DNA of 49,913 bases from Candidatus Woesearchaeota archaeon (GCA_964503975.1 CAZDCI010000003.1:1-49913); one strand, 5' to 3'. Positions 24,197 through 49,913 are shown, numbered from the stretch's first letter. The notes: generated from the letters alone by a model not told the origin. Translations and numbers: made by a program.

Positions 24197-24197
24197 A

Positions 24198-25771: not shown

Positions 25772-25781
25772 TTTGATTTTT

Positions 25782-30264: not shown

Positions 30265-30271
30265 TTTAAGA

Positions 30272-30475: not shown

Positions 30476-30504
30476 TCATTTTTTCAAATTAAAATATATA
30501 TTTA

Positions 30505-30594: not shown

Positions 30595-30724
30595 AAACAG
30601 AAAAGTTAAGTCTGGAATGGGAGCACCACAACCAGTATCTATTTGCAATATTTCTTTAGGAGTTAATAACTATTAAATAGTAACAATAGAAAGATATTTA
30701 TATTATAAATTCAAAAGATAACAT

Positions 30725-34179: not shown

Positions 34180-35274
34180 ATAAAGAGAATATATCTTTTT
34201 TGCTTGCCTTTTCCAAGAAAACATTCTTACATCACCAGCCATCTTTTTAACAATTTTGCCTCTGAGAACATCGTTTTTCAGCAACAATTTTATCTTTGAA
34301 GAAAGATCTTGGTAGTTCCTCGCTTTAAAAATTACACCATTTTTATTATTCTTAATAATCTCAACATTACTACAAGCATCGGAAGATATAATTGCAGTCT
34401 TTAATACAGCAGATTCTAAAAGAGTGGTTAAAACACCCTCTCTGCGATATGATGCAAAAACAGCAATTTTTGATCTTGAAACATAATTGAACAAATTTTT
34501 GTCTTTTAATTTACCTAAAAACTCTACACTATCACTCAAATTCAATTTATTTGATAGGTTAATTAATCTTTCTTTTTCCGGACCATCTCCAATTATCTTG
34601 CAGTTAAATTTGATGTTTTCTTTTTTGAGAATAGAAAGGGATTTTATAAGCGATTCTATTCCTTTTATTTTAATTAATCTTCCATAAGATATTATTTCTA
34701 TATTCTTTTTTCTTGTCTTATGCTTGTTTATTTCTTCTAAATTAATCCCGTTATATACTATATGGACTTTTTTATTTGTTTTATGTAATTCCTTCCAACC
34801 TGATGCCACAAATTTTGATACTGCAATTATTTGATCAGGTATTTTTATGGCCCTATTTTCTATTACTCTTTTTTTATCAGGCAATCCATGAAGATGAAGA
34901 TGTATCTTTTTACCATTTGGAGCACCAAGACAATCAACTGCATAGTGATAAGAAATGTTGGTAAAATTAGAGTTCTCATAAAATTTCTTAGAGAGCTTAG
35001 AAAAGATTATTGATTCTTTATCCCAAATTTTTGGGACAGTAGCCTTTCTAAAAAGATCAAATTCCTTATCTAAATCCTTTGATTTCAAGAGAACAACCCT
35101 TTTTCTAAATTTCACGTAAAATTCCTTAAACCATTCACTTTTTCTTGGAGCATCGTATGTTATAAGGTACGTGTCAATACCTAATTTTATTAAATTTCTA
35201 GTTAGGTTTAATGTATATCTTTCTGCACCTCCTGTATAGTAAGAGCTTCTTGGAGAATGAATTGCTAATTTCAT
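34165..35274 (-). CDS. Glycosyltransferase family 4
   Basis: GGAER, AVS, VYNGI, GRL..IKG, IGDGPE, EG..TTLLE; start placed at ATG 35274. Confidence 0.9.
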   Translation of the reverse strand: MKLAIHSPRSSYYTGGAERYTLNLTRNLIKLGIDTYLITYDAPRKSEWFKEFYVKFRKRVVLLKSKDLDKEFDLFRKATVPKIWDKESIIFSKLSKKFYENSNFTNISYHYAVDCLGAPNGKKIHLHLHGLPDKKRVIENRAIKIPDQIIAVSKFVASGWKELHKTNKKVHIVYNGINLEEINKHKTRKKNIEIISYGRLIKIKGIESLIKSLSILKKENIKFNCKIIGDGPEKERLINLSNKLNLSDSVEFLGKLKDKNLFNYVSRSKIAVFASYRREGVLTTLLESAVLKTAIISSDACSNVEIIKNNKNGVIFKARNYQDLSSKIKLLLKNDVLRGKIVKKMAGDVRMFSWKRQAKKIYSLYLSLK

Positions 35275-35324
35275 ATCCTGCAAAAAGGAAAATTGTTTTA
35301 AATACTTATTTGATTATTATTTTC

Positions 35325-36167
35325 ATGGAAAAGGCTAATCTCTTCATCGTAGGTTTTCCAAAAAGTGGCACATCTTCTTTATACTTTTGGTTAAAACAAC
35401 ATCCTAATGTTTTTATGAGCAATAAAAAAGAACCCTCCTTTTTCTCTAAAGATTTTGAGTTAGTCGGTCAAATAAAAAATAGAAATGAATATAACAACCT
35501 TTTTCTTAAAGCATATAAAGAAAAAATAATAGGAGAAGCCTCTACTAGTTATAGCTTTTCAAAAGAGGCACCAATAAAGATTAAGAAGTATAATCCTGAA
35601 GCAAAAATAATCTTTATAATAAGAGACTTTAGTGATATGTTAGAAAGTTTATACATACATAGAGTTCATAGAACAGGAGATCCGATAAGAAATGACTTTA
35701 GAAAGTGGTTTGAAACACGTTTTATAAAAAAAGACGGGAGAATTGGAAAAAACTTTTACCCCTTCTGGAACTTATTGAATCCTTATAAGACGATTTCATT
35801 ATACATAAAATTGTTTGGAAAAAACAATGTCTTCCTATTAGATTTTAGAAAGTTATCTAAAAATCCAGAAGGAGCATTTGTTAAAACATGTAATTTTTTA
35901 AATATAGATTATGTTAACGTAAAGCTTAATATTCAAAATAAAACATTCGGTTCCAAATCAATTTTTATTGAGAAAGTCGGACACTTTATGAGGAGATATT
36001 TATGTGGAGATGATTGGATAAAGTATTTTAGGTTTTGGGAGAAAAATAGAATAATGAAAAAGCCCCGCTACATAAAAAAAAGAGATAGGGAACATATAGA
36101 CAATCTTTTTTTAGAAGATACCAAAAAAATAAAAGCTCTTATGAATAAACTAAATGGAAGGAAGTAA
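35325..36167 (+). CDS. Sulfotransferase (PAPS-dependent)
   Basis: FIVGFPKSGTSSL..WL.QHP, KEPSFF, GEASTSY, AKIIFIIRD; start placed at ATG 35325. Confidence 0.9.
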   Translation: MEKANLFIVGFPKSGTSSLYFWLKQHPNVFMSNKKEPSFFSKDFELVGQIKNRNEYNNLFLKAYKEKIIGEASTSYSFSKEAPIKIKKYNPEAKIIFIIRDFSDMLESLYIHRVHRTGDPIRNDFRKWFETRFIKKDGRIGKNFYPFWNLLNPYKTISLYIKLFGKNNVFLLDFRKLSKNPEGAFVKTCNFLNIDYVNVKLNIQNKTFGSKSIFIEKVGHFMRRYLCGDDWIKYFRFWEKNRIMKKPRYIKKRDREHIDNLFLEDTKKIKALMNKLNGRK

Positions 36168-36172
36168 AAATT

Positions 36173-36607
36173 ATGAAAATAAATAAAAATTATTCGGGAA
36201 TTATAATAGAAAATACAGAAGGTAAACTCCTATTTCAATTAAGAGATAACAATCCAAAAATTCCAAACAGAAATAAATGGAGCCTATTTGGTGGGGGAAT
36301 AGAAAGAGGAGAAACTCCTTTGCAAGCAATAAGAAGGGAAGTTAAAGAAGAATTGGGTATAAGTCTAAACCAACGTGATTTGAGATTACTTTTTAAAAAA
36401 GAATCTCATTCAAGTAATAGATATGTTTTTTATTATAAAATAAAAAAAGATTTGGGGGACATTAAACTTGGTGAAGGAAAAAGTTTTAAATTTATGCGAT
36501 TATCTGATTTGGTGTTTAGAAAAAATGTTGTTAATTCACTAAGAATGTTTATGGTCTTATACCCGTTTTTAAAAAGAAAAATGGTCAAGAAGAAGGAATT
36601 AAATTAA
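36173..36607 (+). CDS. NUDIX hydrolase
   Basis: QLRD, WSLFGGGIERGETP.QA.RREVKEELG. Confidence 0.9.
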   Translation: MKINKNYSGIIIENTEGKLLFQLRDNNPKIPNRNKWSLFGGGIERGETPLQAIRREVKEELGISLNQRDLRLLFKKESHSSNRYVFYYKIKKDLGDIKLGEGKSFKFMRLSDLVFRKNVVNSLRMFMVLYPFLKRKMVKKKELN

Positions 36608-36667
36608 ACCTTGCTCAACTTTATTATAATACATCCACTCATAAAGTTATAAAGAATCAAATTGCCT

Positions 36668-38149
36668 TCAATGACATCCTTGGGTTGTCGTTGAAGAGTC
36701 ACAATCGGGAACTTCACACTGCGTTCCCGTATCCTGACATGTTCCCGGATCTGAAACATATGTATCACTGCTTCCGCATGCAGGAGAGGTTCCAGATGTC
36801 CATCCAACACTCCCCGCACCTCCAACCATGCAAGGAGGATCTACGCTATCACAGAAAGCGCACTCTCCGTTCGTATCAGTATACTGCTTCTCCGCAGCCC
36901 CGCTACAATTGTAGTCCCAGCTCTCCCTGTCAACCTGAACGTTTGTAGTATACCAATTAGGATTTCCAGGATAAACATTTGCATCAATATCATAACAGTC
37001 GTTTGTGTCTAGCGCATCTTTCGCCCTTACCGCATCGGTGCTAGATGTTTTAAGTGTAGCATTCGGAGCATATCCATCCTGATCAACATCCGTGTAGTAT
37101 AACAGGCCTTTTTCAGTTGAGCCACTACTTAACTGTATCTGAGCTCCACTGAATAGAATGCTATATCCGTCATTCCAATACATTGTTGCACCTGGATTTA
37201 TTGTCATAGTCTTACCAGAAGATATATGTATATCTCCTCCATCATTTCCACTGACTGCATCTACAAAAGTGCAATTACCTTCAATAGTCATAGTTCCACC
37301 ATGATTTGCATAAATTTGACAATTTGTAGGATCTGTCCAAGTCAAATTCACAGTATTAACATTTCCCACAGAATCTGTAGCAATAAAAGTAGTATTATAA
37401 CTCGTATAATGCGTGTCATAAACTTCCCAAGAAGCACTCCATGTTTCTACATCATTTTCATCAGTGGAAACATATTCTAAAGGCAAAACCATTAAATCAT
37501 GATCCAATTGGGTTTCTGTTGTCACATTTAAACCTCCATGGGGAGAAGAAACTCTTGCTGTAAAAGTTTGTGTGTCACCTACCATAACATCTAAAGGATC
37601 TATGATGACTTCTTTAAACTCAGGCAAATCTTCGTCTCCTGAAATACTATAGCTTACCTCTCCCATTCCAGAATATCCTAAAGAAACAAATTTGCTTCCT
37701 GCCCCACCTGTACCTGTTATCGGCTCTTTTAATTCAACATCATCAACAACATTTTCCGCTGTTTCCTCCCCGTAAACGGGCGCAACAGAAATTTTATTTA
37801 TATTCTGAATTGTCAGCTCAGCAAGGTAAAATGAAAATATTTTCTCTTCCAAATTTCCAAGAGTCGTATCTCGTTCTAAAATCTGAGAATCTGTCCCGTT
37901 TTCAAAAATAAATTTAATGGAGGTTAAATTCTCATTCCCAGAACCTTTTTTAACAGTCACTAACAAAGAATCTCCTTCAACAACGGCACTTTTAATATCC
38001 ACCTCTTTACTAAAAGAACTTAGAGAAACATCTTTTATTCCTTCTCCAATAACTCCTCTAATCACTCCCCAAATTATTCCTGTAGCAACCAAAACTAAAA
38101 GGATTATAACAAGTGTTGTAACAACTGCTGATAAACCTCTTTTCTGCAT
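36668..38149 (-). CDS. Surface protein with class III (archaeal pilin-like) signal peptide and Cys-rich C-terminal adhesin region
   Basis: MQKRG|LSAVVTTLVIILLV; D.DQDGY...DCYDIDANVYPG metal-binding motif; Cys-rich tail. Confidence 0.85.
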   Translation of the reverse strand: MQKRGLSAVVTTLVIILLVLVATGIIWGVIRGVIGEGIKDVSLSSFSKEVDIKSAVVEGDSLLVTVKKGSGNENLTSIKFIFENGTDSQILERDTTLGNLEEKIFSFYLAELTIQNINKISVAPVYGEETAENVVDDVELKEPITGTGGAGSKFVSLGYSGMGEVSYSISGDEDLPEFKEVIIDPLDVMVGDTQTFTARVSSPHGGLNVTTETQLDHDLMVLPLEYVSTDENDVETWSASWEVYDTHYTSYNTTFIATDSVGNVNTVNLTWTDPTNCQIYANHGGTMTIEGNCTFVDAVSGNDGGDIHISSGKTMTINPGATMYWNDGYSILFSGAQIQLSSGSTEKGLLYYTDVDQDGYAPNATLKTSSTDAVRAKDALDTNDCYDIDANVYPGNPNWYTTNVQVDRESWDYNCSGAAEKQYTDTNGECAFCDSVDPPCMVGGAGSVGWTSGTSPACGSSDTYVSDPGTCQDTGTQCEVPDCDSSTTTQGCH

Positions 38150-38208
38150 GAGAAATGTAAGGATTTATTATTTATAAAACTAACGAGACAAGAGAAAGGA
38201 ATTAATCT

Positions 38209-39441
38209 TTATTCTTGAGGCCGAGGACGCCATGCTGGAAACCTGTTTAACCCTTCAAAAGTCAACTGAACAGAATTGCCCTCTCTCAAACTAACAGTAT
38301 AAAGCTGACTCTTTGCAAACAATATTGAACTTCCATCAGGAGATATTTCAGGATCAACCTCTATACCTCCATCATTAGTGACTCTTTGCAAGTCTTCTAA
38401 GTTTCCGTTTCTCGCAAAGTAAATATCTGCCTGGCCTCCTTCGTTTGAAACAAAAGTCATGCTACCATCAAGAGAGCAAGAAGGATCCCATTCCCCCCAA
38501 AGTGTATTAGTTACATTTCTTGGATTACTTCCATCAACTTTAACCCTATATAAATCTGCATCATCCCATGAAGGTTTCCATTGTGAGAAAACAATCTCAT
38601 CTTCAGAGCACCACGTCGGAGTTCTGGTTCCCGCCCCTCTCGTTTCGTAAACTCTTCTAAAATTTTTTCCATTTCTGTCCACCACTGCTATCCCTGAAAC
38701 ACCATTTTTAAAATCTATATATGCCATAGCTATCTTGGTTCCATCGGGAGACCACTCTGGATTGAACATATTGAATCTCTCTCCTATAAGCTCATCAAGT
38801 AAAGGTTCTTGATTTTTGCCTTCACTGTCCACTAAATATACTTCTTCAACTCTTGTAGACGTTGCAGAGATTCCTCTACGTGTATCCACAACAGCCAAAT
38901 ACTCCCCGTCAGGAGACCATGCAGGCTCGGAAGCATCCTTTACTAAAACACGCTCATTGTCTAATCCTCTGTCCACCAAGTCTGCAAGATAAACATTTTT
39001 ATCTCCATTTGAAAGATTGACATTCAGATACGCAATCTGCTCAGGCTCCTCAACCCTGACAGCATCTTCCAAGCTAGCCGTGGTCTTAGCACCTTCGTTG
39101 TCTGTAACCGTGACTGAGGCCCTGTATTCTCCTGCTTCAGGATAAGCATATGTGGTTGTTGCTGATTCGGTTGTAGCATCAGACCATCCATCGTTATCAA
39201 AATCCCAACGATAACTCGTTATAGTTCCGTCAGGATCATAACCTTGGGCACTGAAAGTTACATCTTGTCCCCTATAGGCTTGCATAGGTTCTGCAGAAAC
39301 CTTTTCTATAACGGGTTTTTGATTTTCTATTGTTATAGGACTGTCACAACTAGAATAAAATAAACTTCCTAATGCGATAGCACTTGCTGCTAAAGCTGTT
39401 CTTCCTACACCTTTAACTCTTCCAACCAAGTTTTTAGCCAT
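38209..39441 (-). CDS. PKD domain plus TolB/PD40 beta-propeller protein, probably a lipoprotein
   Basis: DPDGTITSYRWDF...VTDNEG (PKD); repeated P.WSPDG; signal peptide ending SSC. Confidence 0.88.
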   Translation of the reverse strand: MAKNLVGRVKGVGRTALAASAIALGSLFYSSCDSPITIENQKPVIEKVSAEPMQAYRGQDVTFSAQGYDPDGTITSYRWDFDNDGWSDATTESATTTYAYPEAGEYRASVTVTDNEGAKTTASLEDAVRVEEPEQIAYLNVNLSNGDKNVYLADLVDRGLDNERVLVKDASEPAWSPDGEYLAVVDTRRGISATSTRVEEVYLVDSEGKNQEPLLDELIGERFNMFNPEWSPDGTKIAMAYIDFKNGVSGIAVVDRNGKNFRRVYETRGAGTRTPTWCSEDEIVFSQWKPSWDDADLYRVKVDGSNPRNVTNTLWGEWDPSCSLDGSMTFVSNEGGQADIYFARNGNLEDLQRVTNDGGIEVDPEISPDGSSILFAKSQLYTVSLREGNSVQLTFEGLNRFPAWRPRPQE

Positions 39442-39899: not shown

Positions 39900-40817
39900 T
39901 TAATTAAGGGGAGAATTAATTAATCTCTCATATAAATTTCTATTTTCACTTGAAAATTTTCTCCTTTTATCTCTTTGCAACATCCTTATAACTCCTGTCT
40001 CTTTTGACGGAACTACATAGCTTCCATAAGCAATGAGCTTAGCCCCAAAATGAGTATCTTCATATCCCCAGGTTCTAAATCTTTCATCAAATCCTTCCAC
40101 ATTTAAAACATGATTTCTTCTTACACTTACATTATGTGTAACAACCATCTTAGGTAATGTCCAAGGACCGATTCTTCTATAATGGCCAAACTGTTTAAAC
40201 CAATCTGTTTCTTCTGCTAGTTTAAATTCTGTTCTACCAAATTGGGCAGTGTTAAATTTTTTATAATATCTAAAATCGTCAGTTATATCAGGAACTATTC
40301 GATTAGGATTTGCTAATAAGCTAGAAGCCTCATCAAAATAAATATTTTGTGCAAATCCTACTGCAATTGCTTTATCTAAAGAATTATGAATTGTCCACAT
40401 TTCTTCAAAATAATTTGAAGGCAGTAAAACATCAGCATCAAAAAAGAAAATCAATTCTTTGTTGGATTTTTTAATTCCTGAATTTCTTGCGGAACTTCTT
40501 CCCAAATTTTTATCATGATCTATAAAATACATATCACAAGGAAAATACAACCTTTCAAAAACAGAATAAACATCTTCTTCAGACCCATCATTCACAATAA
40601 TTAACTCAAATAAATCGGGATTGGATAGAATCGTTTTATGTCTTGACAAGTTTTCTAATGTTTTTTCCAGGGCTCTTTTTCCATTGTAAACAGGAATAAT
40701 AATTGAGGAAGAAATTGGAGATCTGTTTTCAAAGGGTTCATAACAACTGTAATCATTATCTTTTTTTTCTAAGAGTTTCCTAATTGTCTCTTGAGAGTCC
40801 ATTTTTTTCTCCTTCAC
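39900..40817 (-). CDS. Glycosyltransferase family 2
   Basis: SIIIPVYN, VNDGS, ARNSG, FFDAD, GFDERF.TWGYED. Confidence 0.9.
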   Translation of the reverse strand: MKEKKMDSQETIRKLLEKKDNDYSCYEPFENRSPISSSIIIPVYNGKRALEKTLENLSRHKTILSNPDLFELIIVNDGSEEDVYSVFERLYFPCDMYFIDHDKNLGRSSARNSGIKKSNKELIFFFDADVLLPSNYFEEMWTIHNSLDKAIAVGFAQNIYFDEASSLLANPNRIVPDITDDFRYYKKFNTAQFGRTEFKLAEETDWFKQFGHYRRIGPWTLPKMVVTHNVSVRRNHVLNVEGFDERFRTWGYEDTHFGAKLIAYGSYVVPSKETGVIRMLQRDKRRKFSSENRNLYERLINSPLN

Positions 40818-41440
40818 CCTCTTTTTCTTTTAATGGATAATTCTTGTTGTGTTTATCATACAATTCTATTGCATTATTCATCCAGTTATATATGGGCATT
40901 ATCAGTTCTTTTTCTTGATCAAAATGTATCTTATCCAAACTTTTCTTTAATTTTTTCCTAGTCCAGTCATAGAAAAAATCCCAATTATTAAAAAACGAGG
41001 CTTTAGCAAAGTAGTGCAGAGTAATAAATTTTGAAACAGCATCAGTAGTATTAACAATTTTTGCGTTTACAGAAGAGGAATCGTCTGATGAAATGGTTTG
41101 ATTTATACATTCCACAACATTTTCAACAATATCTTCAGAAAATCCTTTTTTCTTCAATAATTCTCTTGCATACTCAACACTCCTTCCTTCATGCCCTGCA
41201 GGAGATTCTTCTTCTCTTTTATAAACTAATCCAGTATCGTGCAAATAGACGGCTAGTACAAATTAATAAATCTCCACCATACTTCTGGCACATTTCATCT
41301 GCCATGTCTGCCATAACATCAAAGTGATGTGGAAAAATCCATTTTGGGTTTTGGTAATCGTTTTTTGCATTATTTTTAAATAAATTAAAAACTTCCTTTT
41401 TTACTTCTTCTATTTTCTCATTTCTTATCATTTGCTGCAT
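40780..41440 (-). pseudogene. HD-domain protein split by a frameshift near 41258; paralog of 42231-42923
   Basis: ORFs 41219-41440 and 40780-41244 align end to end with the paralog (WIFP.HF, LHD.GLVYKRE, HYFAKASFFNNW); about 2 nt are missing. Confidence 0.8.
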
Positions 41441-42234
41441 ACCTCCACTAACTTATTTGTAACATAATCAGGTTCTCCATTAATTTTATAGATGAAAGAG
41501 GCATTGTTAACAAATCTTTTAAACATCTCTAAATAATTTTGTTGTAATCCTTTGATCTCTTTTGTATCTATGGCACTTGCAAATCTTGATTCCAAGGGCC
41601 TACTTAAAAAATATTTTAATGTTTCATCAGTAATTAGCCCCTCCTCAACGACTTCCCTTTCGGCAGTTATTTGTCTATCCTTTTTCACATCTATCACCAC
41701 AATAGTATAGTCATTAAAAAAGTGAACGCCATCTTTTGAATTTCTATAAGATTTAATTTCACTTTCTCTTTTCCTAAAACCTATCAATTCATTTCCAGCC
41801 ATTGATGGATCTCTAACAATCACATGATCATCTCCAACTATTTCTCCAAAATTCATAGACGCCAAGTTATCTAAAGTTAGGCTCTTCCCAGATTTACTTT
41901 CTCCTAGAACAAATATGCCTCTTTTATTTACACTTATTGCTCCACAATGTAATGGCAAATTTCCATTTTCAACACTATTCATATCAAAAGCAAATCTAAA
42001 ATAATATGAATCTCTTTTTAGATTTGAGCCATCCCAGGGAAAAGTAACCTTCCTTAAATTCAAATTATAGCCATAATTTTTTCCCATGTTAATGGACAAT
42101 TGTCCTACGGTATTAGAATCTTCCCTAAAACAAATTCGGGTTCTGAATGTTTTTGAAGAGAATAGTTGTCTTTCTTCATCTGACTCAAAAAGAACTTTTG
42201 TTGCCAATCGTTCTAAATCTGAATCAATTTTCAT
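41428..42234 (-). CDS. HPr kinase-like P-loop protein
   Basis: LHCGAI, LGESKSGKS, VGDDHV. Confidence 0.7.
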   Translation of the reverse strand: MKIDSDLERLATKVLFESDEERQLFSSKTFRTRICFREDSNTVGQLSINMGKNYGYNLNLRKVTFPWDGSNLKRDSYYFRFAFDMNSVENGNLPLHCGAISVNKRGIFVLGESKSGKSLTLDNLASMNFGEIVGDDHVIVRDPSMAGNELIGFRKRESEIKSYRNSKDGVHFFNDYTIVVIDVKKDRQITAEREVVEEGLITDETLKYFLSRPLESRFASAIDTKEIKGLQQNYLEMFKRFVNNASFIYKINGEPDYVTNKLVEVCSK

Positions 42235-43139
42235 TCGTATCTCTCCCTATATTTATCATACAATTCTATAGCTTTTATCATATAATCTCTGATTGGTTTC
42301 ACAATTTTTCTTTCATCTTCAAAACTTATTTTGTTGTAACAACTTTCAACCCTATCTCTTACCCATTCCATGAAAAAGTTCCAATTATTGAAAAAGGATG
42401 CTTTGGCAAAATAATGCACACTAATAAATTGGGATAAAATATCTGCCGTTCTTAGTATCTTTGCATTGATTGATTTAGGCTCCCCTTTTTCATCTTTCTC
42501 TGTAGAAACTATGCAATCTATGACTTCTTTGGAAATATCTTCGGATATTTCATATTTTTTTAGGATTTCTTTAGCATACCCCCTACTTCTTTTCTCATGA
42601 CCTTCTGAAGATTGATTTTCTCTTTTATATACAAGCCCAACATCATGAAGTAAAACAACTAATTCGCAAACCAAAATATTACCATCATACTTATCACACA
42701 TGTCTTTAACCAAACCACTCATTATGTCAAAATGATTTGGAAATATCCAATCTGGATTAGTATATTCGTTCTTTGCGTTATTTTTAAATAAAAGATATAT
42801 TTCTCTTTTTATATCCTGTAGCTTATCTTTATTTTGTTCCATATCAATAATCATATCAATTTTATTTAAAATACTTTTCGTATAATCCTTTTGAAATTTA
42901 TCTCTTCCTTTTAAGATATTCAAGAAATATTCATGGTACTTCTCTTTCTTTAGTGTAGGGTATTCAAATAATAATCTTTTTATGATGTTTTTATATAAAC
43001 TATCTATCCCTTTTTTTAGTATATTTTTAGGATCATAAAAGATTTTATGTGTGATGTATTTTGCTGTAGGAATTCCATAAATATATTTTCCTTCACTAGA
43101 TATAAAAAATAAAGGGAGTTTAATCGAATTTCCTGTTTT
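42231..43139 (-). CDS. HD-domain protein, apparently 5'-truncated
   Basis: LLHDVG, GHE.RS, LRTAD; the frame stays open upstream of TTG 42923 to 43139 with no start codon. Confidence 0.7.
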   Translation of the reverse strand, partial: KTGNSIKLPLFFISSEGKYIYGIPTAKYITHKIFYDPKNILKKGIDSLYKNIIKRLLFEYPTLKKEKYHEYFLNILKGRDKFQKDYTKSILNKIDMIIDMEQNKDKLQDIKREIYLLFKNNAKNEYTNPDWIFPNHFDIMSGLVKDMCDKYDGNILVCELVVLLHDVGLVYKRENQSSEGHEKRSRGYAKEILKKYEISEDISKEVIDCIVSTEKDEKGEPKSINAKILRTADILSQFISVHYFAKASFFNNWNFFMEWVRDRVESCYNKISFEDERKIVKPIRDYMIKAIELYDKYRERYE

Positions 43140-43736
43140 TTATTCATCCTTTAAATTTTTTCTGAATTTAATAAATTCATCCTGGCCAAAAAGAACAATT
43201 CCTTTTTTTATGGCATCAATAAAAATTTTGTTTCGTTTCTTTAATTCTTTTTCAAATTCTTTTTTTGTAAAATTTTCCGAATGTATTTTTTTGGATTGAA
43301 TTTTTTGTATTTTTTGTAAAGCTTCTTCAATGTTTTGGAAATCGTTTTCACTGGAAACTACTCCTAAAATGTCTATATCACTTGCTTCTCTTGGAGAGTG
43401 AAGTATGCTTCCGTACAATATTAAAAAATCTACAATTTTCCCAACATCTTCAAAATTTTCCATCCATCTTCTGTGTTTCAAAGCTTCTTCCGTTAAAATC
43501 AAAGAAAGTTTTTTTTCTAACAATAAATTCTCCCAGTTTAAATTCACAATAATGCTGTTTGTTTTTCCCTCTCCAATCTGGGAAAGAGAAATTAATTTTT
43601 CACGCTCTAAGTTTTTCAAAGCCTTCCATGTTCCGACTCTGCTTAAATTAATCTCTTTACTTAAAGCAGTGACCGTCCATCTGGATTTAAACTGTTTTAA
43701 TAGGATTTTCAAAATTTTTGTTTTTGTATCAGCCAT
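43140..43736 (-). CDS. wHTH plus minimal nucleotidyltransferase (MNT) protein
   Basis: LSKEINLSRVG HTH; LYGS...SDIDIL; IKKGIVLFG. Confidence 0.85.
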   Translation of the reverse strand: MADTKTKILKILLKQFKSRWTVTALSKEINLSRVGTWKALKNLEREKLISLSQIGEGKTNSIIVNLNWENLLLEKKLSLILTEEALKHRRWMENFEDVGKIVDFLILYGSILHSPREASDIDILGVVSSENDFQNIEEALQKIQKIQSKKIHSENFTKKEFEKELKKRNKIFIDAIKKGIVLFGQDEFIKFRKNLKDE

Positions 43737-43955
43737 ATTTTAATTTTAATAACTATTTACTTTTTATTAACAACTATTAACCTTTAGTTAATAATACTAT
43801 TTAAATCTTACTATTCACAATATAAACTTTTCATTGTTAATGAACACCCGTATTTGTTGGTTTCTACTTGACATTTTTATATAATTATGTCTATATATGT
43901 TAGACATTTTGTAAAAATTAGCATTAAATTTGTGTTTAATTTAAGTAAAAATTAA

Positions 43956-44094
43956 CTACTTAACCTTCGGGTTCAAACCGTTAACATTAAGCCTATAGCT
44001 AACCTCTCCTGCCCGCGTCCTATGTATTATCAAAGCATTCTCGCCAACATTCTTAGTATACCAAACCCTTCCTTCCATCAAAAGCTGGTGTTAA
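43956..44094 (-). pseudogene. Orphan 3' end D of the fibre-like gene
   Basis: LTPAFDGRVWYTKNVGENALIIHRTRAGEVSYRLNVNGLNPKVK* after removing a 4-bp GAAG duplication, versus LTPGFDGRAWYEKNSKENSVTIHGTQAGEVSYRMTAN. Confidence 0.88.
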
Positions 44095-45377
44095 TCTTTC
44101 TCCAAAACCCATTTCCATACAGGAACAATTTTTATCTTTTTGCCTTTGAAATTTTCTTGCCCTTCATTATTCATCGTAATTAAAGTTAGTTTTTTACAAT
44201 CATATTCTTTAGAAGCTTTGACTAAAGAACTAAGCTCTCTTTCTTTTGTTGCAAAATGACCTATATCAAAAGAGACTTGTATCAATTCTTTCACCTTTTT
44301 CCCTTCTCTTACAACAAAATCAACTTCTTCTAAATTATTATTTTTATAATAAGAAACTTTTTTTTCCCTTCTAATCAATTCAAGAAAAACCAAATTTTCT
44401 AAAAGCCTTCCTTTGTCATCTATATTATTAATTGATAAAATCCCATTATCAACAAAATACACTTTTGGCAGGGTTTGGTTTTCTTTTTTATATGAAAGAT
44501 CAAATTTTCTCAAAAGAAAAACAATGAATGCGTCTTCAAGGTAACCAAGATAATTATAAATTGAATCTCTACCGACTTTTAATCCAGATGATTTCAGATA
44601 ACTATAAAATTTATTTGCTGAGAACTCTTTTGAATTTATTAAAGCTTTGAGGAGTCTTTTTACCACATCAGTATTTCTTATATTCTCTCTTTCTATTACG
44701 TCTTTATACAAAGCCGTGTCGAATATATTTGTAAGAATTCTTTCTTTTTCTTCAGGATAAAATACTGTTTCTGGATATCCACCATCATAAAAATACTTAT
44801 TGAATAAATTCAGTATTCTTGATTTTTCTCTCGAAGATAAAACCTTTTCAAAACTTATTCCTTTGGAAAACAAGTATTCTTTAAATGAGAAAGGAAATAC
44901 TTTATATGTAAGAGTCCTTCCCCTCATAGAAGTTGCAATCTCTTTACTGAGCATTCTTGAAGAGGAACCTGAGACAAACACATTTATGAATTCATCAAGG
45001 CATGTTCTCACAAAAATTTCCCAATTTTTAACATTTTGAATTTCATCTAAAAAAAACCATATATCTTTTTTCTTAATATCCGGATTCATCTCAAAAAACG
45101 CTTCTTTCATCAAGACTAAATCTTTTGAGTTTAAAGGTAAAAGCCCTGCTTTCTCAAAATTCATATATAAAATATTTTTTCTTTTATATTTTTTAGAAAG
45201 TTTTTTGATTAATGAAAACATCAAATAAGTTTTTCCTGCTCTTCTCGGGCCTATTATTGCAACAGCGCGTCTTATTGGTTTTTCAAGAGGGATTTTTATT
45301 TCTCTCTCAATTAAATCCGGAAGCTCCATCTCATAGGAATCTTTTATCATTTCCTTCCATTCTTGTTTTGACACCAT
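44091..45377 (-). CDS. AAA+ ATPase with DUF4143 domain (COG1373-type)
   Basis: GPRRAGKT, FLDEIQ, SGSSS, GGYPE, KVYFVDNG, EVDFV. Confidence 0.92.
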   Translation of the reverse strand: MVSKQEWKEMIKDSYEMELPDLIEREIKIPLEKPIRRAVAIIGPRRAGKTYLMFSLIKKLSKKYKRKNILYMNFEKAGLLPLNSKDLVLMKEAFFEMNPDIKKKDIWFFLDEIQNVKNWEIFVRTCLDEFINVFVSGSSSRMLSKEIATSMRGRTLTYKVFPFSFKEYLFSKGISFEKVLSSREKSRILNLFNKYFYDGGYPETVFYPEEKERILTNIFDTALYKDVIERENIRNTDVVKRLLKALINSKEFSANKFYSYLKSSGLKVGRDSIYNYLGYLEDAFIVFLLRKFDLSYKKENQTLPKVYFVDNGILSINNIDDKGRLLENLVFLELIRREKKVSYYKNNNLEEVDFVVREGKKVKELIQVSFDIGHFATKERELSSLVKASKEYDCKKLTLITMNNEGQENFKGKKIKIVPVWKWVLEKD

Positions 45378-45468
45378 ATCTTGTATAAGATGAAACTATT
45401 TATAAAAGTTTCCTTTTATAAAAGTCTAAAGTTCTTCAATCTCAACCCTTAAACCTAACCCTCAAAAC

Positions 45469-45600
45469 CTAAACAAAAGCTTGTCTAAATTCAACACTTT
45501 TAACACTGTTTTCATCACGCGTGTTATCCCATTCTTCACTATTGAATCTTTCTCCTGTAAGCCTATAGCTGATTTCTCGAGTTTGCGTGCTGTGTATTGT
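45469..45600 (-). pseudogene. Orphan 3' end C of the fibre-like gene
   Basis: TIHSTQTREISYRLTGERFNSEEWDNTRDENSVKSVEFRQAFV*. Confidence 0.85.
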
Positions 45601-45971
45601 CAAGATTTCCTTACCTGATATTTATTCATGTCTACTACAACTAAAGAATTTTTTATTTCTTTTTCACCTGTTGATTTCAAAAAATTCTCAAGAACATTGT
45701 TGATTTGATCAGCTGTAAAATAAAACGGCACTCTTAACACTATAACTCCTTTATGTGATTTTGATGGGTAAAGTAAAATATTTCCAAAATGGAGATCTTT
45801 TGTTACTAAAATTTGGTCATTCTTCACAGCATAATCTATTATTTCTTTATCTGGAGAATTACCCATTCCAACTTCTCTTGTATGTTGAACTTCATGTTTA
45901 AATTTTTTAAAGATGTTTATTGAAGAATAAGGAATATTTGCATCAAGAAAAAATTTCATTTTACTGTTCAA
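45600..45971 (-). CDS. DUF5615 PIN-like toxin
   Basis: MKFFLDANIP, D.EI..YA, LVTKD.HF, GVIVLR. Confidence 0.85.
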   Translation of the reverse strand: MNSKMKFFLDANIPYSSINIFKKFKHEVQHTREVGMGNSPDKEIIDYAVKNDQILVTKDLHFGNILLYPSKSHKGVIVLRVPFYFTADQINNVLENFLKSTGEKEIKNSLVVVDMNKYQVRKS

Positions 45972-46179
45972 TATTGTAAACTTCTTCGCTGCTAATTAAT
46001 GAAACAGCATACTTTATTGCGGTTATTACATCTGTTTTTTTTAAGCCATATTCTTTTTCTATCTCTTCATAAGTCATTCCGCCCGCTAATGCTCCTAAAA
46101 CTTCTTCTACACTAATCCTTGTTCCTTTTATTAAAGGTTTCCCGTGCCTTTTTTTATTGTCTATAACTATATTTTCCAT
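45961..46179 (-). CDS. DUF433 antitoxin
   Basis: GKPLIKGTRISV...GMTYEEI..EY.L...DV..A..YA. Confidence 0.92.
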   Translation of the reverse strand: MENIVIDNKKRHGKPLIKGTRISVEEVLGALAGGMTYEEIEKEYGLKKTDVITAIKYAVSLISSEEVYNIEQ

Positions 46180-46218
46180 ATTATCCTAAACAGTATAATG
46201 TATTTAAAACTTTCTCCA

Positions 46219-46345
46219 TCATTTAGCAGGAGGCGTCAAACCACCTGAACTAGCATCAGCAAGGCTACTCCACTTCTTATGGTCAAACCTCGTACCTGTG
46301 AATCTGTAGGAAACCTCGCCTGCCTGGGTTCCATCAAAAGCATGG
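46219..46345 (-). pseudogene. Orphan 3' end B of the fibre-like gene
   Basis: AFDGTQAGEVSYRFTGTRFDHKKWSSLADASSGGLTPPAK* (internal deletion between AFDG and GTQ). Confidence 0.88.
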
Positions 46346-47563
46346 TTAATCCTTTTCCAAAACCCATTTCCAAACAGGTTTAACAATTATCTTTTTATTG
46401 TTAATTTCCATTTCATCTTCCTGATTATAAGTCAATACCAGCCCTTCTTTTAATTTAAATTTTTTAAGCGCTTCAAGAAGCCCTTTAACTTCTCTTTCTT
46501 GATTCTCATCATCAAATTTATAACAAACCTGAATTGCTTGAATTATCTTTTCTCTATCCTTTATTAAAAAATCGCATTCTCCTTTGTCTTGAAAATAGAA
46601 GATTTCTTTATATCTTCTTCTCAAATTCAGAAATACCCCATTTTCTAGCATCTTGCCTTTATCTTTTGAAAAAGAAACCGAATTAGAATATGAAAGCCCA
46701 TTATCTATAGAATAAATTTTTTTTGGGTTCACTTGTTGCTTCTTATAAGAATAACTAAATTTGGGAATTGTGAAAATTAAATAAGAATCTTCCAAATAAG
46801 AAATATAATCAAGGACACTCTGAACGGATTTAACTTTAAGCATTTTTTTAAGTGAATTTGCGGAGAATTCTTTCCCTACGTTACTCAATAAATGAATTGC
46901 CAATTTTTTTAATATTGAAGTATTTTTTATACCAAATCTATTTACAATATCTCTCATTAACACATCATTCAATAGTTCATGTAATCTTGTAAAGTCATCT
47001 TCTCTTAAAAATTCGGGAAATCCTCCCTTATACAAAAAATCATAGTAAGATTTTTTTCCGGGTTTTTTATTAAAAAATTTCAAAAATTCAGAATAGGAAA
47101 AAGGAAAAAGTTCATAACTTAAATGTCTTCCTGTAAGTTTTGTTCCTAATTCTCTGCTTAAAAGAGAAGCATTAGACCCCGTAATAACCACTTTATTTTT
47201 TCTGTCTACTAAAAATCTAACAAATTTCTCCCAACCAGAAACACTTTGTATTTCATCAAAAAAATACACTCCTCCATCACCATATTCTTCTTTAAACACC
47301 TCATCTGCTCTGTTAAAATCACCTAGCTCGAATCCTTCAAGACGAGGATCTTCAAAATTCAAATAATAAAAAGATTTCTGTCTTTTCAAAAGTTGATTCA
47401 AAAGCGTACTTTTTCCACACCTTCTAATTCCTGAGATAATCACAGCAAAAGATTTATTTAATTTTATTTCAGAAAGTTTTTCCCTGAGTACCCCTTGTTC
47501 TATAGACTCTATCCATTCTCTTTGTGATTTTGCAACATTTCTCAATGTCTTTTTGGTCAACAT
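46346..47563 (-). CDS. AAA+ ATPase with DUF4143 domain (COG1373-type)
   Basis: GIRRCGKST, FDEIQ, TGSNAS, GGFPE, KKIYSIDNG, ECDF. Confidence 0.92.
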   Translation of the reverse strand: MLTKKTLRNVAKSQREWIESIEQGVLREKLSEIKLNKSFAVIISGIRRCGKSTLLNQLLKRQKSFYYLNFEDPRLEGFELGDFNRADEVFKEEYGDGGVYFFDEIQSVSGWEKFVRFLVDRKNKVVITGSNASLLSRELGTKLTGRHLSYELFPFSYSEFLKFFNKKPGKKSYYDFLYKGGFPEFLREDDFTRLHELLNDVLMRDIVNRFGIKNTSILKKLAIHLLSNVGKEFSANSLKKMLKVKSVQSVLDYISYLEDSYLIFTIPKFSYSYKKQQVNPKKIYSIDNGLSYSNSVSFSKDKGKMLENGVFLNLRRRYKEIFYFQDKGECDFLIKDREKIIQAIQVCYKFDDENQEREVKGLLEALKKFKLKEGLVLTYNQEDEMEINNKKIIVKPVWKWVLEKD

Positions 47564-47593
47564 GTATACCTCAAAGTCTGATGCTTTATAAAG

Positions 47594-47658
47594 GTTTCTA
47601 TTGTAAATAGAAACTTCTTTCTATTGGTAATAGATACTCTCTTTCATTAGTAATGAAC
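47594..47658. promoter_or_regulatory. Three tandem palindromic operators next to the ATPase TATA box
   Basis: GTTTCTATT-GTA-AATAGAAAC, CTTTCTATT-GGT-AATAGATAC, TTCATT-AGT-AATGAA at about 23-bp spacing. Confidence 0.6.
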
Positions 47659-47679
47659 AAACTCCTTTTCTTTACGTTA

Positions 47680-47778
47680 ATAACCTCACGAGTATCCAAA
47701 AAGCTTACTATCTCGTCAACCAACCTTCTCTTATATAATTTGTATACCATAATATACTTTTTATATAATAAAATGTAT
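47680..47778 (-). pseudogene. Truncated duplicate of the 5' end and upstream region of ATPase 48106-49320
   Basis: 99 bp matching 49250-49348 with 1 mismatch. Confidence 0.9.
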
Positions 47779-47931
47779 GAATCTTCTAAATTTTAAGTCT
47801 TTTATAAAAAGAAATTGTATTTGTTTCATCACATAAAAACAAGTTACATTAAGATAACTTATTTTTAACTTTTATGTTAATTACATGTAACGTACGCTTC
47901 TAAACTTTTCTAAACCCTCTTAACCCTTACC

Positions 47932-48067
47932 TTAAATCACTTCAAAGGCGGCCTTAAACCTTCAACACCATCTGCATTCTGGGCCAAGTTTGTCCTGTTT
48001 CCCCAATTGAACATGTTTGCAGTCATTCTGTAAGAGACTTCTCCTGCCTGTGTTCCATGGATTGTCA
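47932..48067 (-). repeat. Orphan 3' end A of the fibre-like gene
   Basis: 136 bp matching 49380-49515 with 3 mismatches. Confidence 0.95.
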
Positions 48068-48105
48068 ATTCTCCAAAAATGCGATTTCATAAATTTTAAA
48101 ATCTA

Positions 48106-49320
48106 TTAACTTTTTACTTTAATTATCATTTCCCATGGGTATTTCTTTTCATCGGAATTCTTTTTCCCATAAATTGAAACAGTGTACGTTTCTGAGCTGT
48201 GTTTCTCTTTAAAAAATCTCAGATTTGTATTTTTGGCTCTTTGAAAATTTAATTTGTTTTCTATTGCAAAAATATTTGTATTCTTCTTTACAATAAAATC
48301 AACCTCTTGCTTGTTCGTTGTTCTCCAGAAGTTTATTTCTTGCTTATTTTTAAGTAAATCAGAAAAAAAAGCTGTCTCAAAAGAATTTCCCAAAACAATT
48401 TTAGGAAAAGATTTTAAATGAAGTAAATGCATTAATCCCGTATCAATAAAAAAAACTTTCGGTGTCTTTGTTAATTCAGACCTTATGTTTTTATGAAAAG
48501 GTTTAACTAACTTTATTATATAGGTAGCTTCCAACAAAAACAACCATTCTTTTACTGTCTCTCTGTTTATTCCAATTGTATTAGAAAGCTCATTGATGTT
48601 TAAAAGTTTCCCTGATTGCGACGCTAGTACCTCTAAAAGTTTATTAAAAGAATCTATATCTCTTACATTTCCTAAATTCCGTATATCTTTTCTTATATAT
48701 GTATTTATTATTTGAGACATAAGCACTTTCTTTTTTTCCAAAGATTCTTCCAAAACTAAACGTGGATATCCTCCAAAAAAAACATATTCTTCAAATAAAG
48801 AAATAAGTTCATTATTTATTTTCTCAGTATTTTCTTCTTTTAAAACGTATTTCTTTTCTTTGAATCTTAAAAATTCTTCAAAATTAAGAGGAAAAAGTTC
48901 AAAATTAACACTTCTTCCAACTAATGATTCCTTAAATTTTCTTTTTATATCAAAAGAAGACGAGCCAGAAACAATTAATTTAACCTGGGGAAAGTGGTCA
49001 TGAAACAATTTTAGAAAACTTGAAGGATTTTCTAAGTATTGTATTTCATCTATCAAAAGAAATATTTTTTTACCTTTCTCCAAGTCCCTTTCAAGAAGGT
49101 ATTTATAAACACTTTCGGGCCCTTTTTCACAAAGATCTAAAAATTCAGGCATTTCTAAATCAATATAAAAAAAATTATCCTTTATGTGATTATCAATCAA
49201 GTATTTCATCAAAGAGGTTTTTCCAACTTGTCTTGCGCCATGTATTACTATAACCTCACGAGTATCCAAAAAGCTTACTATCTCGTCAACCAACATTCTC
49301 TTATATAATTTGTATACCAT
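48106..49320 (-). CDS. AAA+ ATPase with DUF4143 domain (COG1373-type)
   Basis: GARQVGKT, IDEIQ, SGSSS, GGYP, PKVFFIDTG, QEVDF. Confidence 0.92.
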   Translation of the reverse strand: MVYKLYKRMLVDEIVSFLDTREVIVIHGARQVGKTSLMKYLIDNHIKDNFFYIDLEMPEFLDLCEKGPESVYKYLLERDLEKGKKIFLLIDEIQYLENPSSFLKLFHDHFPQVKLIVSGSSSFDIKRKFKESLVGRSVNFELFPLNFEEFLRFKEKKYVLKEENTEKINNELISLFEEYVFFGGYPRLVLEESLEKKKVLMSQIINTYIRKDIRNLGNVRDIDSFNKLLEVLASQSGKLLNINELSNTIGINRETVKEWLFLLEATYIIKLVKPFHKNIRSELTKTPKVFFIDTGLMHLLHLKSFPKIVLGNSFETAFFSDLLKNKQEINFWRTTNKQEVDFIVKKNTNIFAIENKLNFQRAKNTNLRFFKEKHSSETYTVSIYGKKNSDEKKYPWEMIIKVKS

Positions 49321-49384
49321 AATATACTTTTTATATAATAAAATGTATACTTAAATCTTTCTATTCTGGAAAACTTTTTTTAAA

Positions 49385-49913
49385 TCACTTCAAAGGCGGC
49401 CTTAAACCTTCAACACCATCTGCATTCTGGGCCAAGTTTGTCCTGTCTCCCCAGTTGAACATGTTTGCAGTCATTCTGTAAGAGACTTCTCCTGCTTGTG
49501 TTCCATGGATTGTCACAGAATTCTCTTTTGAATTTTTCTCATACCAAGCTCTTCCGTCAAATCCTGGAGTTAGTATTATTTGCAGTTTTTCCCAGTTCTT
49601 TCCAAAGTCTGTGGCTTGATAGAACAGCCACAAATCACTTCCTTTTTCAACTTCATCAAAATCAATTGTATAATTACTGCTTAACATTACGGTTCCTGTA
49701 ACCTCTTCTTTTACTCCTCCGGATATGAAAGGAGCGTAAGTTGCATACTTAACACCTTCAATATTATAAACAGGGTCAATTTCCCCTGTGTCTACCGTAA
49801 GCTTTCCTGTAATTCTTGCGTTCCCGTTTACATCTAATTCATACGAAGGCGTAGTATCCCCGATGCCGACTTTGCCGTCTTTATCTATTCTCATTTTCTC
49901 TGTAGGAGTTCCG
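49385..49913 (-). CDS. C-terminal part of a fibre/adhesin-like surface protein (continues beyond the window)
   Basis: Frame open to the window edge; EKMRIDKDGKVGIGDTTP..LDVNG motif typical of trimeric fibre-like proteins. Confidence 0.75.
   Translation of the reverse strand, partial: GTPTEKMRIDKDGKVGIGDTTPSYELDVNGNARITGKLTVDTGEIDPVYNIEGVKYATYAPFISGGVKEEVTGTVMLSSNYTIDFDEVEKGSDLWLFYQATDFGKNWEKLQIILTPGFDGRAWYEKNSKENSVTIHGTQAGEVSYRMTANMFNWGDRTNLAQNADGVEGLRPPLK

Follow-up and report, generated by a model that had tools for sequence, protein, structure and literature searches.

We believe, with roughly even confidence, that the four orphan 3' ends downstream of a giant fibre-like surface gene are scars left where small cargo cassettes were inserted one after another behind that gene, its 3' end being duplicated each time. 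Each event would set a promoter-to-stop cassette of one to a few genes, carrying defence-candidate ATPases or a toxin–antitoxin pair, directly behind the stop codon, and would leave beyond the cassette a second copy, truncated at its 5' side, of the final ~25–70 codons. Because of this second copy, the gene would be kept intact, and the older 3' end and everything behind it would be pushed outward. Topologically, this would correspond to circular DNA that bears a stretch homologous to the target and integrates by a single crossover (Campbell-type), as for e14 in icd. Such insertion is already known from e14/icd, from archaeal elements in gene 3' ends and from tycheposon arrays, and we regard the present array as a variant of that kind.

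Fibre gene and orphan 3' ends

The window, which is the whole stretch of 49,913 nt analysed, belongs to the 658-kb genome (G000) of a tiny DPANN-type archaeon. The fibre ORF is open on its 5' side (Table 1); the ORFs of relatives reach up to 3915 aa, and what is probably the N-terminal part, which has repeats of the GNVGIGTTSP type, is cut by the end of contig C1. The 175 codons of the C-terminal part had no match in Pfam or PDB.

Downstream of the gene and on its strand, four 5'-truncated copies of its 3' end (A–D) each stand behind a cargo unit. The repeat search returned A and the gene-borne copy F as a 136-nt repeat (47932–48067 against 49380–49515; 98%, 3 mismatches), in exact agreement with the preliminary description, which had also located B–D. 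The motif reported there for all four copies was found as GEVSYR in A, B and D and as REISYR in C, and the fibre tail copies show a conserved EVSYR..FDW block followed by a variable tail. Reading by eye showed an internal deletion of ~18 codons in B and a 4-nt insertion by way of which D reaches 44094; frameshifts, deletions and in-frame stops mark the decay of the orphans.

When the last 175 aa of the fibre protein were searched by tblastn against the whole 658-kb genome, A (2e-23), D (7.6e-8), B (5e-4) and C (0.02) were recovered, and the copies were confined to the window array. A profile built from nine full-length fibre tails only, with the orphans left out, detected A (8.6e-17), D (3.3e-12), C (2.1e-9) and B (1.1e-8), which bears out the earlier alignment of B–D to the fibre C-terminus. 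The local DNA alignment scores of A–D were 265, 64, 61 and 70, respectively, and the maxima of 200 shuffles per orphan were 49, 46, 56 and 48.

Table 1. Positions of the fibre gene, its orphan 3' ends, the cargo and the flanking features in the window.
Feature	Position	Strand	Remarks
Giant fibre-like surface gene, 3' part	49385–49913	-	C-terminal domain, 175 codons; gene cut by contig end
Gene-borne 136-nt repeat copy F, attL-like	49380–49515	-	From codon TIHG to 5 nt beyond stop
Cargo 1, ATPase1 (AAA_14 + DUF4143)	48106–49320	-	Defence candidate, PADLOC PDC-S01
Orphan A	47932–48067	-	97.8% identical to fibre gene 3' end
Remnant of earlier ATPase1-type cassette	47680–47778	-	Promoter and first 23 codons
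Cargo 2, ATPase2 cassette	46346–47626	-	Gene 46346–47563; Pfam, PADLOC 8.6e-113
Orphan B	46219–46345	-	Adjoins ATPase2 stop codon; internal deletion; terminates at homologous stop
Cargo 3, DUF433 + DUF5615/PIN_10 pair	45600–46179	-	DUF433 45961–46179, DUF5615/PIN_10 45600–45971; Pfam 2.2e-18, 2.8e-24
Orphan C	45469–45615	-	REISYR; begins at DUF5615 gene stop
Cargo 4, ATPase3 (AAA_14 + DUF4143)	44091–45377	-	PDC-S01; Pfam, PADLOC
Orphan D	43956–44094	-	Longest fragment, from LTPAFDG; 4-nt insertion; tail shortened
Distal cargo without orphans	39900–43736	-	HTH-nucleotidyltransferase 43140–43736, HD protein 42231–42923, unknown gene 41428–42234, frameshifted HD paralogue 40780–41440, GT2 39900–40817
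Conserved distal flank of island	36668–39441	-	PD40/PKD lipoprotein 38209–39441; pilin-signal surface protein 36668–38149
Second series, pilin-like gene	28133–36719	-	3' end 36597–36719 repeated at 30487–30594 and 28133–28223

Cargo and assembly of the array

The Pfam order matched the gene order described before: fibre, AAA_14/DUF4143 ATPase, A, ATPase, B, DUF433 with DUF5615/PIN_10 (probably a toxin–antitoxin pair), C, ATPase, D and HTH-nucleotidyltransferase. ATPase1 was supported by Pfam (3.8e-41 and 8e-33) and PADLOC (2.2e-81), and the 99 nt of the remnant at 47680–47778 were 99% identical to 49250–49348. The cassettes have discrete ends. The ATPase2-type cassette starts 63 nt ahead of the start codon, at the identical point in the window and in relative G004, where the adjacent sequence differs; the two share 75.8% nucleotide identity over 1218 nt (G004:C5 9800–8589). 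The ends of an MNT/HEPN module were kept in four loci, with an identical orphan junction in two of the four.

Logan contigs of low depth (~5x) from two runs of a single study, perhaps made on the source sample, span D (43463–44599), C (44595–45852) and B (46044–47709) and reach both edges of A (47749–47961; 48030–49023); A itself is crossed by no contig. An assembly artefact, in which alternative alleles of co-existing strains were joined through the repeats, would agree with the metagenomic origin of the assembly, with an A/F repeat (136 nt) longer than the 55-nt contig overlaps and with the interruption of the Logan contigs at A and F. However, B, C and D have diverged too far to mislead an assembler and are each spanned by independent contigs, each edge of A is reached by a contig, one of them with A's own variant, and arrays occur in 11 further loci of other assemblies, including contigs of 54–457 kb. 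We consider such an artefact extremely improbable.

Recurrence in relatives and at other genes

The preliminary description expected varying orphan numbers with different cargo, and relatives indeed carry 0 to 6 orphans per locus with differing cargo, the majority having no orphan. Altogether, 26 orphans were found over 11 loci, with a further five of an unrelated fibre tail in G004. All of them lie downstream on the gene's strand and contain the end of the C-terminal domain only; none was upstream or antisense when both strands and both flanks were searched. Array-bearing loci have 1–6 cargo units each. Alignable repeats end 2–32 nt past the stop codon, and four orphans in G007 and G004 end before the gene's stop or decay there; the duplications differ in length and have a common right edge just past the stop codon. 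Empty sites were present at five same-genus loci, where the fibre stop is directly followed by pilin-like or PD40 genes, with neither cargo nor orphan; the PD40/PKD lipoprotein and pilin-signal genes are there within about 40–90 nt of the fibre stop.

The young events have long, nearly identical repeats: 202–213 nt at 97% in L024 and L061, enclosing 3.3–4.3 kb; 136 nt at 97.8% for F/A in the window, enclosing 1.3 kb; and 92 nt at 97.8% in G004, enclosing one ATPase gene. In G004, the ATPase cassette landed within the array and duplicated 92 nt of non-fibre spacer. Not every cargo gain leaves a scar, because some neighbouring cargo modules in L016 and L082 have no orphan between them and G051 has cargo and no orphan. 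The final cargo of every array is without its own orphan.

The signature is not peculiar to the fibre gene. The C-terminal 45-mers of 566 G000 ORFs were used as queries in a genome-wide scan, and all nine same-contig orphan matches were on the same strand and downstream (0 upstream, 0 antisense). They comprise the fibre gene, a pilin-like gene, hisS and sod, together with two rows that differ from the signature, namely a frameshifted HD paralogue and a weak match on C5 (29% identity) inside a 68-aa ORF. The pilin-like 3'-end copies enclose a 6-kb glycosylation island and a radical-SAM gene, the orphan hisS end flanks Fic and a toxin–antitoxin pair, and a LAGLIDADG endonuclease gene is located between sod and its orphan end. 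A gene-capture platform specific to the fibre gene is not supported, the other three genes showing the equal signature. Five unrelated sequences have been duplicated: fibre tail type 1, fibre tail type 2 (G004), the pilin-like gene end, the hisS end and a non-coding spacer.

Proposed order of insertion and tail exchange

The proximal copy was said to be nearly identical to the gene and the distal ones diverged. This holds in the window, where A is the youngest copy, and fails in relatives: identity to the own gene was 95, 99 and 87% with increasing distance in G016, and no steady fall was seen in G007 or L032 (85–91%, flat). For 10 of the 26 orphans the best match was a sibling orphan of the same array, as for o2, o4 and o5 of L032, which are almost identical and stand beside different cargo. 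Together with the G004 insertion inside the array, these results speak against a strict chronological order. The swapping of protein tails, which had also been proposed, is plausible: the tail has probably been exchanged, because 7 of the 26 orphans are nearer another locus's working tail than their own gene's. Under serial cassette insertion, such exchange would be a by-product set by the position of the crossover.

Recombinases and circular forms

The array was described as free of integrase, and this was confirmed. No tyrosine recombinase (PF00589) was found in the window, and the 107 fetched loci (858 kb) gave no Xer-like match when both such proteins of the genome served as tblastn queries. 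Integrase families were absent among the Pfam-scanned cargo proteins, as was any integrase from the youngest inserts (window F/A, L024, L061 and G004). PF00589 had no match in G016 (90% complete, 3 orphans) and only a sub-threshold one of 17.7 bits in G007 (91% complete, 5–6 orphans). The suggested genome-wide search did find two Xer-like tyrosine recombinases elsewhere in G000; because of this pair, and because the genomes are 84–91% complete, a recombinase may act in trans. No circular form, excision joint or same-strain empty allele was seen in the ~5x Logan contigs of the only runs that contain the window, where the two joints have sides of 21 nt.

We infer a circular intermediate, and as the responsible enzyme we favour host homologous recombination over a dedicated site-specific integrase, because five unrelated sequences were duplicated alike. 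Excision would occur by recombination of two direct repeats, and re-entry could take place at any copy, gene or orphan.

Alternative explanations

The cassettes could be the decayed remains of larger elements that were integrated site-specifically by their own integrase, with classical attL/attR, and from which streamlining deletion left addictive toxin–antitoxin or defence genes and att scars. Such elements are classically recognized by direct repeats of the target 3' end; 3'-distal integration and site re-use are described for Thaumarchaeota (PMC6563490), as are partial tRNAs of older integrations in tycheposon islands (10.1101/2020.12.28.424599). The passage from cargo to orphan also remained conserved despite strongly diverged cargo: ATPase2 joins B, and ATPase3 joins D, through homologous sequence (52 nt, 83%), although the two proteins are just 35% identical; a conserved attachment sequence with a function would account for this better than neutral scars would. 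However, the youngest inserts (97–98% repeats) have no integrase, neither the 858 kb nor G016 gave a recombinase match, five unrelated targets would require several integrases, and neither the fibre tail nor ATPase1/2 had a relative in viral contigs; we regard this origin as unlikely. We hold distinctly unlikely a nuclease-triggered or new duplicative mechanism, in which cargo nucleases cut the target and repair copies the cassette with a resistant 3' end, or insertion itself makes the 70–210-nt target duplication. Candidate cutters are the DUF4143 ATPases (three of the four window cargo units; DUF4143 is, we presume, a nuclease fold), the Zn-ribbon and PD-(D/E)xK protein, which occurs in four arrays including the youngest insert, and the LAGLIDADG enzyme beside sod. 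The duplicated sequence is local in every case, whatever its kind, and its length varies about a constant right edge. Against this, many cassettes (MNT/HEPN, RelE-like, MazEF, NYN) are without a DNA endonuclease, no terminal inverted repeats were seen by eye at the ATPase1 insert ends, and we know of no homing in which the target is duplicated.

We also weighed the strict platform model, in which a new tail and its downstream cargo arrive together as linear DNA at every event and the array is a chronological record. The nearly identical A with diverged B–D, the 7 of 26 orphans closest to another locus's working tail, and the orphan-less last cargo, as if the last orphan had once been the functional end, followed by a gene of its own, speak for it; the non-monotonic identity in G016, G007 and L032, the L032 siblings alike despite unlike cargo, the G004 insertion and the three other genes speak against it, and we find it quite improbable. 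The orphans might instead be a silent cassette store that varies the fibre tail by gene conversion, as pilS supplies silent cassettes to pilE. The copies lack a 5' end and combine a conserved block with a variable tail, and orphans have tail types in common with working genes of other loci; such common tail types are compatible with silent-cassette variation and not specific to it. The orphans are, however, interleaved with unrelated cargo and decaying, most relatives have none, and hisS and sod carry equal scars where variation would be senseless, so that we judge a silent store very improbable.

Comparison with known systems

Integrons are polar arrays of small, mostly single-gene cassettes with a repeated end element and a tendency to have the newest cassette proximal. 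The present array is likewise a polar array of small cassettes, whereas its repeats are copies of the gene's end. An integron was rejected: no IntI lies beside the array, and A–D and F folded no better than shuffles (z +0.25 to +2.17), with no attC-like hairpins. CDI/Rhs orphan CT/immunity modules are promoterless 3' fragments downstream of a large surface or secreted gene, with adjacent small genes. In contrast, the present fragments, all of them homologous tails, do not exceed 57 codons and carry no toxin domain, the adjacent genes are self-contained toxin–antitoxin or defence modules with their own promoters, and hisS and sod have scars too. CDI/Rhs modules were rejected, the fibre C-terminus having no Pfam family and the cargo consisting of ATPases or complete toxin–antitoxin pairs.

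Serial cassette insertion has closer parallels elsewhere. In E. coli K-12, e14 supplies icd with a replacement 3' end and leaves a C-terminal gene fragment, the pseudogene icdC, at its far end; recombination of the two copies gives a chimeric gene (PMC13626634). As there, direct repeats of the target 3' end flank the insert, the gene is intact and relatives have the empty site; an insert-encoded integrase was found neither in the window and the 107 loci nor among the scanned cargo. Whereas e14, a prophage of 15 kb, has a site-specific system of its own, the present inserts are 0.7–4.3 kb, integrase-free and stacked up to six deep.

The earlier statement that no archaeal system of this kind was described is too strong. 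A survey of 68 integrated elements in Thaumarchaeota (PMC6563490) found 14 in the 3'-distal part of a protein gene; the original stop codon is replaced by one that the element carries, and arrays formed by tandem re-use of a site are noted. Those proviruses, casposons, ICEs and cryptic elements have integrases or casposases, and their repeats are short, whereas here single gene cassettes have repeats of about 70–210 nt and no recombinase in cis. In Prochlorococcus tycheposon islands, newcomers at one site push older elements inward and partial target copies are scattered (10.1101/2020.12.28.424599). Tycheposons use tRNA/tmRNA targets and tyrosine recombinases, whereas protein genes are the targets here, no recombinase lies in the array, and the single tRNA of the window is at 18613–18698. 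What the two have in common is an island that grew by repeated insertions at a single site and is dotted with partial copies of the target.

Structure of the Array in the Window

The signature, in which a gene is followed by cargo and then by a 5'-truncated copy of its own 3' end (orphan), is real and recurrent. In DPANN archaea, it is best filed as the scars left where single-gene cassettes lacking an integrase have integrated repeatedly at the 3' ends of genes. In the window, the duplicated gene is the giant surface-fibre-like gene (fibre), a label that is based on size and repeats only. Neither Pfam nor the PDB sequences (best E 0.5) gave a match to the part of the fibre in the window, and the open frames of its relatives reach 3915 aa with GNVGIGTTSP-type repeats. 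A 1119-codon frame with repeats of this type is truncated at the end of contig C1 of the same genome (G000; 658 kb in 22 contigs, estimated 84% complete), of which the window is the entire contig C3, and this frame is probably the missing front part of the fibre. All genes beyond 39.9 kb are on the minus strand, and the window also encodes eIF2-gamma, which identifies the organism as an archaeon.

Orphan A matched the fibre 3' end over 136 nt with 3 mismatches, as the preliminary description had stated, and behind it lies a 99-nt remnant of the promoter and the first 23 codons of the ATPase1 gene. Orphans B, C, and D, which had been described as more diverged homologs of the same tail, aligned significantly to the fibre C-terminus by tblastn against the whole genome and matched a profile (E 1e-8 to 3e-12) for which nine full-length tails were the sole input. 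At the DNA level, each of the three scored above all 200 shuffles; D carries a 4-nt insertion, and B has an internal deletion. Pfam assignments gave the same gene order that had been read from the sequence: fibre, ATPase1, A, ATPase2, B, the DUF433/DUF5615 pair, C, ATPase3, D, and an HTH-nucleotidyltransferase. The three ATPases are AAA_14 + DUF4143 proteins that match PDC-S01, a defence candidate of PADLOC, with E values as low as 1e-113, and the HTH-nucleotidyltransferase matches PDC-M05A. The junction from ATPase2 to B is homologous to that from ATPase3 to D, the two ATPase proteins being just 35% identical. No attC-like folding of the orphans was found.

The distal flank of the array holds a pilin-signal protein and a PD40 lipoprotein. 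The same two genes follow the fibre stop within ~40-90 nt at empty sites (no cargo and no orphan behind the stop), which were found in five same-genus loci, and the island of the window therefore measures 9.9 kb.

Independent low-depth contigs (Logan) cross B, C, and D and extend to each of the two edges of A; in a third run of the same study, almost nothing of the window is present. Two contig skips (45941 to 47065 and 47780 to 49151) were given no weight because their sides are 21 nt long and their offsets are not those of the repeats.

Coordinates of the features in the window and in other contigs and loci
Feature	Position	Strand	Remark
Fibre gene, 3' part (last 175 codons only)	49385-49912	minus	open frame
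Orphan A	47932-48067		aligned to 49380-49515
G-rich tracts behind the stops of A and C	47880-47935, 45420-45470		seen by eye
Island	49385 to 39441
Distal flank of island	36668-39441
Pilin-like gene	36668-38149	minus
Copies of pilin-like 3' end	30487-30594, 28133-28223	minus	90-99% identity
HD-domain gene	42231-42923
Frameshifted HD paralogue	40780-41440
Gyrase A gene	7901-11554
hisS locus with its orphan 3' end, G000:C2 (L156)	23327-26291
sod locus with its orphan 3' end, G000:C2 (L169)	52056-53613
Xer-like recombinases, G000	C7:29049-29876, C12:~4780-5592		42% identical to each other
Protein of ~380 aa	L016:3358-4497, L024:1806-2954, L061:2288-3457, L082:2183-3286
G-rich tract behind the stop of the G004 fibre gene	L168 ~12880-12920		seen by eye

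The Same Signature at Other Sequences

The signature is not a property of the fibre sequence of the window. In G004, a genome of the same genus, a giant repeat protein ends in an unrelated tail (…RGLRGIFNSILGGGFD…) that is unmatched by the tail profile, and five orphans of this tail lie downstream on the same strand, between toxin-antitoxin pairs and two DUF4143 ATPases. One of these ATPases is 76% identical to ATPase2 of the window; the DNA similarity begins 63 nt upstream of the start codon in both genomes, and the adjoining sequence differs between them. Because a 92-nt repeat (97.8% identical) of a non-fibre spacer lies on either side of this ATPase2-like gene, including a promoter-like box, the insertion took place inside the array.

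Three further genes of G000 itself show the signature. One is the pilin-like gene, whose final ~12 codons, together with the next 40-70 nt, recur in two copies; these flank a 6-kb glycosylation island (glycosyltransferase/sulfotransferase/NUDIX) and a radical-SAM gene, and an AbiEii gene lies behind the last copy. At hisS, the end of the gene occurs again at a distance of 1.8 kb on the downstream side, beyond a DUF2283 pair and a Fic gene, with an alignment score of 118 against a shuffle maximum of 64. For sod (Fe/Mn superoxide dismutase), an orphan copy of the 3' end (29 aa, 48%, E 7e-5 against the genome) lies behind a free-standing LAGLIDADG endonuclease gene, which directly follows sod on the opposite strand. 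When 566 ORFs were scanned with C-terminal 45-mers, nine of nine same-contig orphan hits were downstream and on the same strand, two of them (the frameshifted HD paralogue and a weak C5 match inside a small ORF) not being the signature. A 47-nt direct repeat flanking the fourth DUF4143 ATPase of G000 (C7) was rejected as a 5'-end orphan because its score of 79 fell below the A-rich shuffle maximum of 80.

Distribution and Cargo in Relatives

The C-terminal domain of the fibre was found in 15 of the 42 genomes of the genus, five of which carry orphans, and a single orphan was found in a genome of a second genus. Orphans occurred in 5 of 80 metagenome loci among the matches listed. In the genome collection (44 loci), they were present in 4 of 14 loci with archaeal titles and in none of the 30 with bacterial titles, which are mostly Patescibacteria (the label of the Bacillota-titled L123 is doubtful). 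The arrays of the four archaeal loci are ones known from the searches above, and these loci were left out of the total of 26 orphans in 11 loci, the metagenome share of which comes from the matches listed. All orphans share the strand of the full gene and are located downstream of it. They cover the domain end only, from profile position 116 of 172, and all except D begin at position 123 at least. The right edge of the repeat, where the end aligns, lies 2-32 nt past the stop codon, and the left edge is variable; in G007 and G004, four orphans fall short of the stop or are decayed near it.

Contigs end 8-35 nt past the fibre stop in G020:C7, G011:C2, L073, L094, L112, and L117, which would be expected if strains diverge exactly at that point. 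The domain (40-54% identity) also ends giant proteins of many Patescibacteria (L125-L155), including Saccharibacteria, Parcubacteria, Kaiserbacteria, Adlerbacteria, and Nomurabacteria, and no orphans were found in these loci. The domain is thus common to small-celled bacteria and DPANN archaea.

The preliminary description had named cargo that varies by locus as support for its gene-capture model, and such variation was found. The types are MNT/HEPN pairs, ParE/RelE-like, HicA, MazEF, AbrB/PIN, DUF4258/DUF2283, NYN, Fic, and a Zn-ribbon + PD-(D/E)xK protein, part of the cargo in relatives being named by eye only. The near-identical strains L024 and L061 have the fibre and the distal part of the insert in common, whereas 2-3 kb of their proximal cargo is different, the difference starting 15 nt past the stop. 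When the downstream flank of the L047 orphan was compared with the empty-site relatives, nothing aligned, and the contig ends ~200 nt past this orphan. Viral contigs scanned with the tail profile, ATPase1, and ATPase2 yielded no relatives, and a free viral or plasmid form of a cassette was not found in these scans. A protein of ~380 aa in the arrays of four loci has a weak InsA-like zinc ribbon and a C-terminal PD-(D/E)xK/Cas4-like nuclease domain, and it may be a nuclease for mobility or defence.

Order of the Orphans and Probable Exchange of Tails

The array had been proposed to be chronologically ordered, with a swap of the protein tail at each event. The proximal copy is the youngest in the window, but identity does not fall with distance in G016, G007, and L032. 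The nearest relative was a sibling orphan for 10 of the 26 orphans and the working tail of another locus for 7; for the other 9 it was the copy of the own or a near-identical strain or, for L013 o2, an orphan of another locus. Given these counts and the non-falling identity, the array is not a clean chronicle. The proposed swap fared better, and from these sequence relationships the tails have probably been exchanged.

Proposed Integration Mechanism and Significance

In line with the earlier view of an integrase-free array, no Xer-like gene turned up across the 858 kb of loci retrieved, and even the youngest inserts lack an integrase. A check of the genome for a tyrosine recombinase returned two Xer-like genes on other contigs of G000; their neighbourhoods are not mobile-looking, and the C12 copy adjoins pilus-assembly-like membrane genes. 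PF00589 had no match in G016 and a single sub-threshold one in G007.

Single-crossover integration of a circle with homology to its target would leave an intact gene, the insert, and a 5'-truncated gene end. In published accounts, e14 integrates in icd with the same topology (PMC13626634), and so do archaeal elements in protein genes, at their 3'-distal parts (PMC6563490). The arrays in this study share this layout; unlike those elements, their units are 0.7-4.3 kb and lack an integrase even in the youngest inserts. We favour homologous recombination between portable repeats, which would insert promoter-to-stop cassettes at gene 3' ends, over the action of one site-specific enzyme because five unrelated sequences were duplicated alike. 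In view of the conserved cargo-to-orphan junctions and the incompleteness of the genomes, a recombinase acting in trans is still a live rival, and a repair-driven route is likewise alive, since nucleases are among the cargo. With these in view, homologous recombination at portable repeats is the integration mechanism that we infer.

We also put forward, tentatively and as a rather doubtful reading, an integrase-free capture of defence and toxin-antitoxin genes in a DPANN genus. It would duplicate 70-210 nt at gene 3' ends, mainly that of the fibre, would be driven by homologous recombination or by cuts of cargo nucleases, and might exchange the tail at each capture. DPANN archaea have very small genomes, and to our knowledge few mobile elements are known from them. 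A literature search yielded no account of such orphan 3' ends downstream of surface genes in DPANN archaea. With its discrete cassettes, its scars, and the empty sites of its relatives, the locus is a readable record of defence-gene gains, and it points to a route of gain that dispenses with an integrase in cis. Should recombination at portable repeats or nuclease-triggered repair be the true route, this would be an integron-like solution made from ordinary parts, and the turnover of defence genes would be tied to how the tip varies in a giant surface protein whose probable contacts are hosts or viruses.

Additional Observations

By eye, G-rich tracts (GGGTT/GAGGG runs) were seen behind the stops of the G004 fibre gene and of two orphans of the window, A and C, and a promoter-like box was seen behind most orphans. 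Orphans o3 and o4 of L032 carry a ~30-nt GC-rich insertion. The HD-domain gene of the window has its frameshifted paralogue 1.4 kb downstream (278 nt, 68%), with one 268-aa gene of no assigned family between them, and the gyrase A gene contains an intein (Intein_splicing, 3.1e-22) inside a 1217-aa frame.
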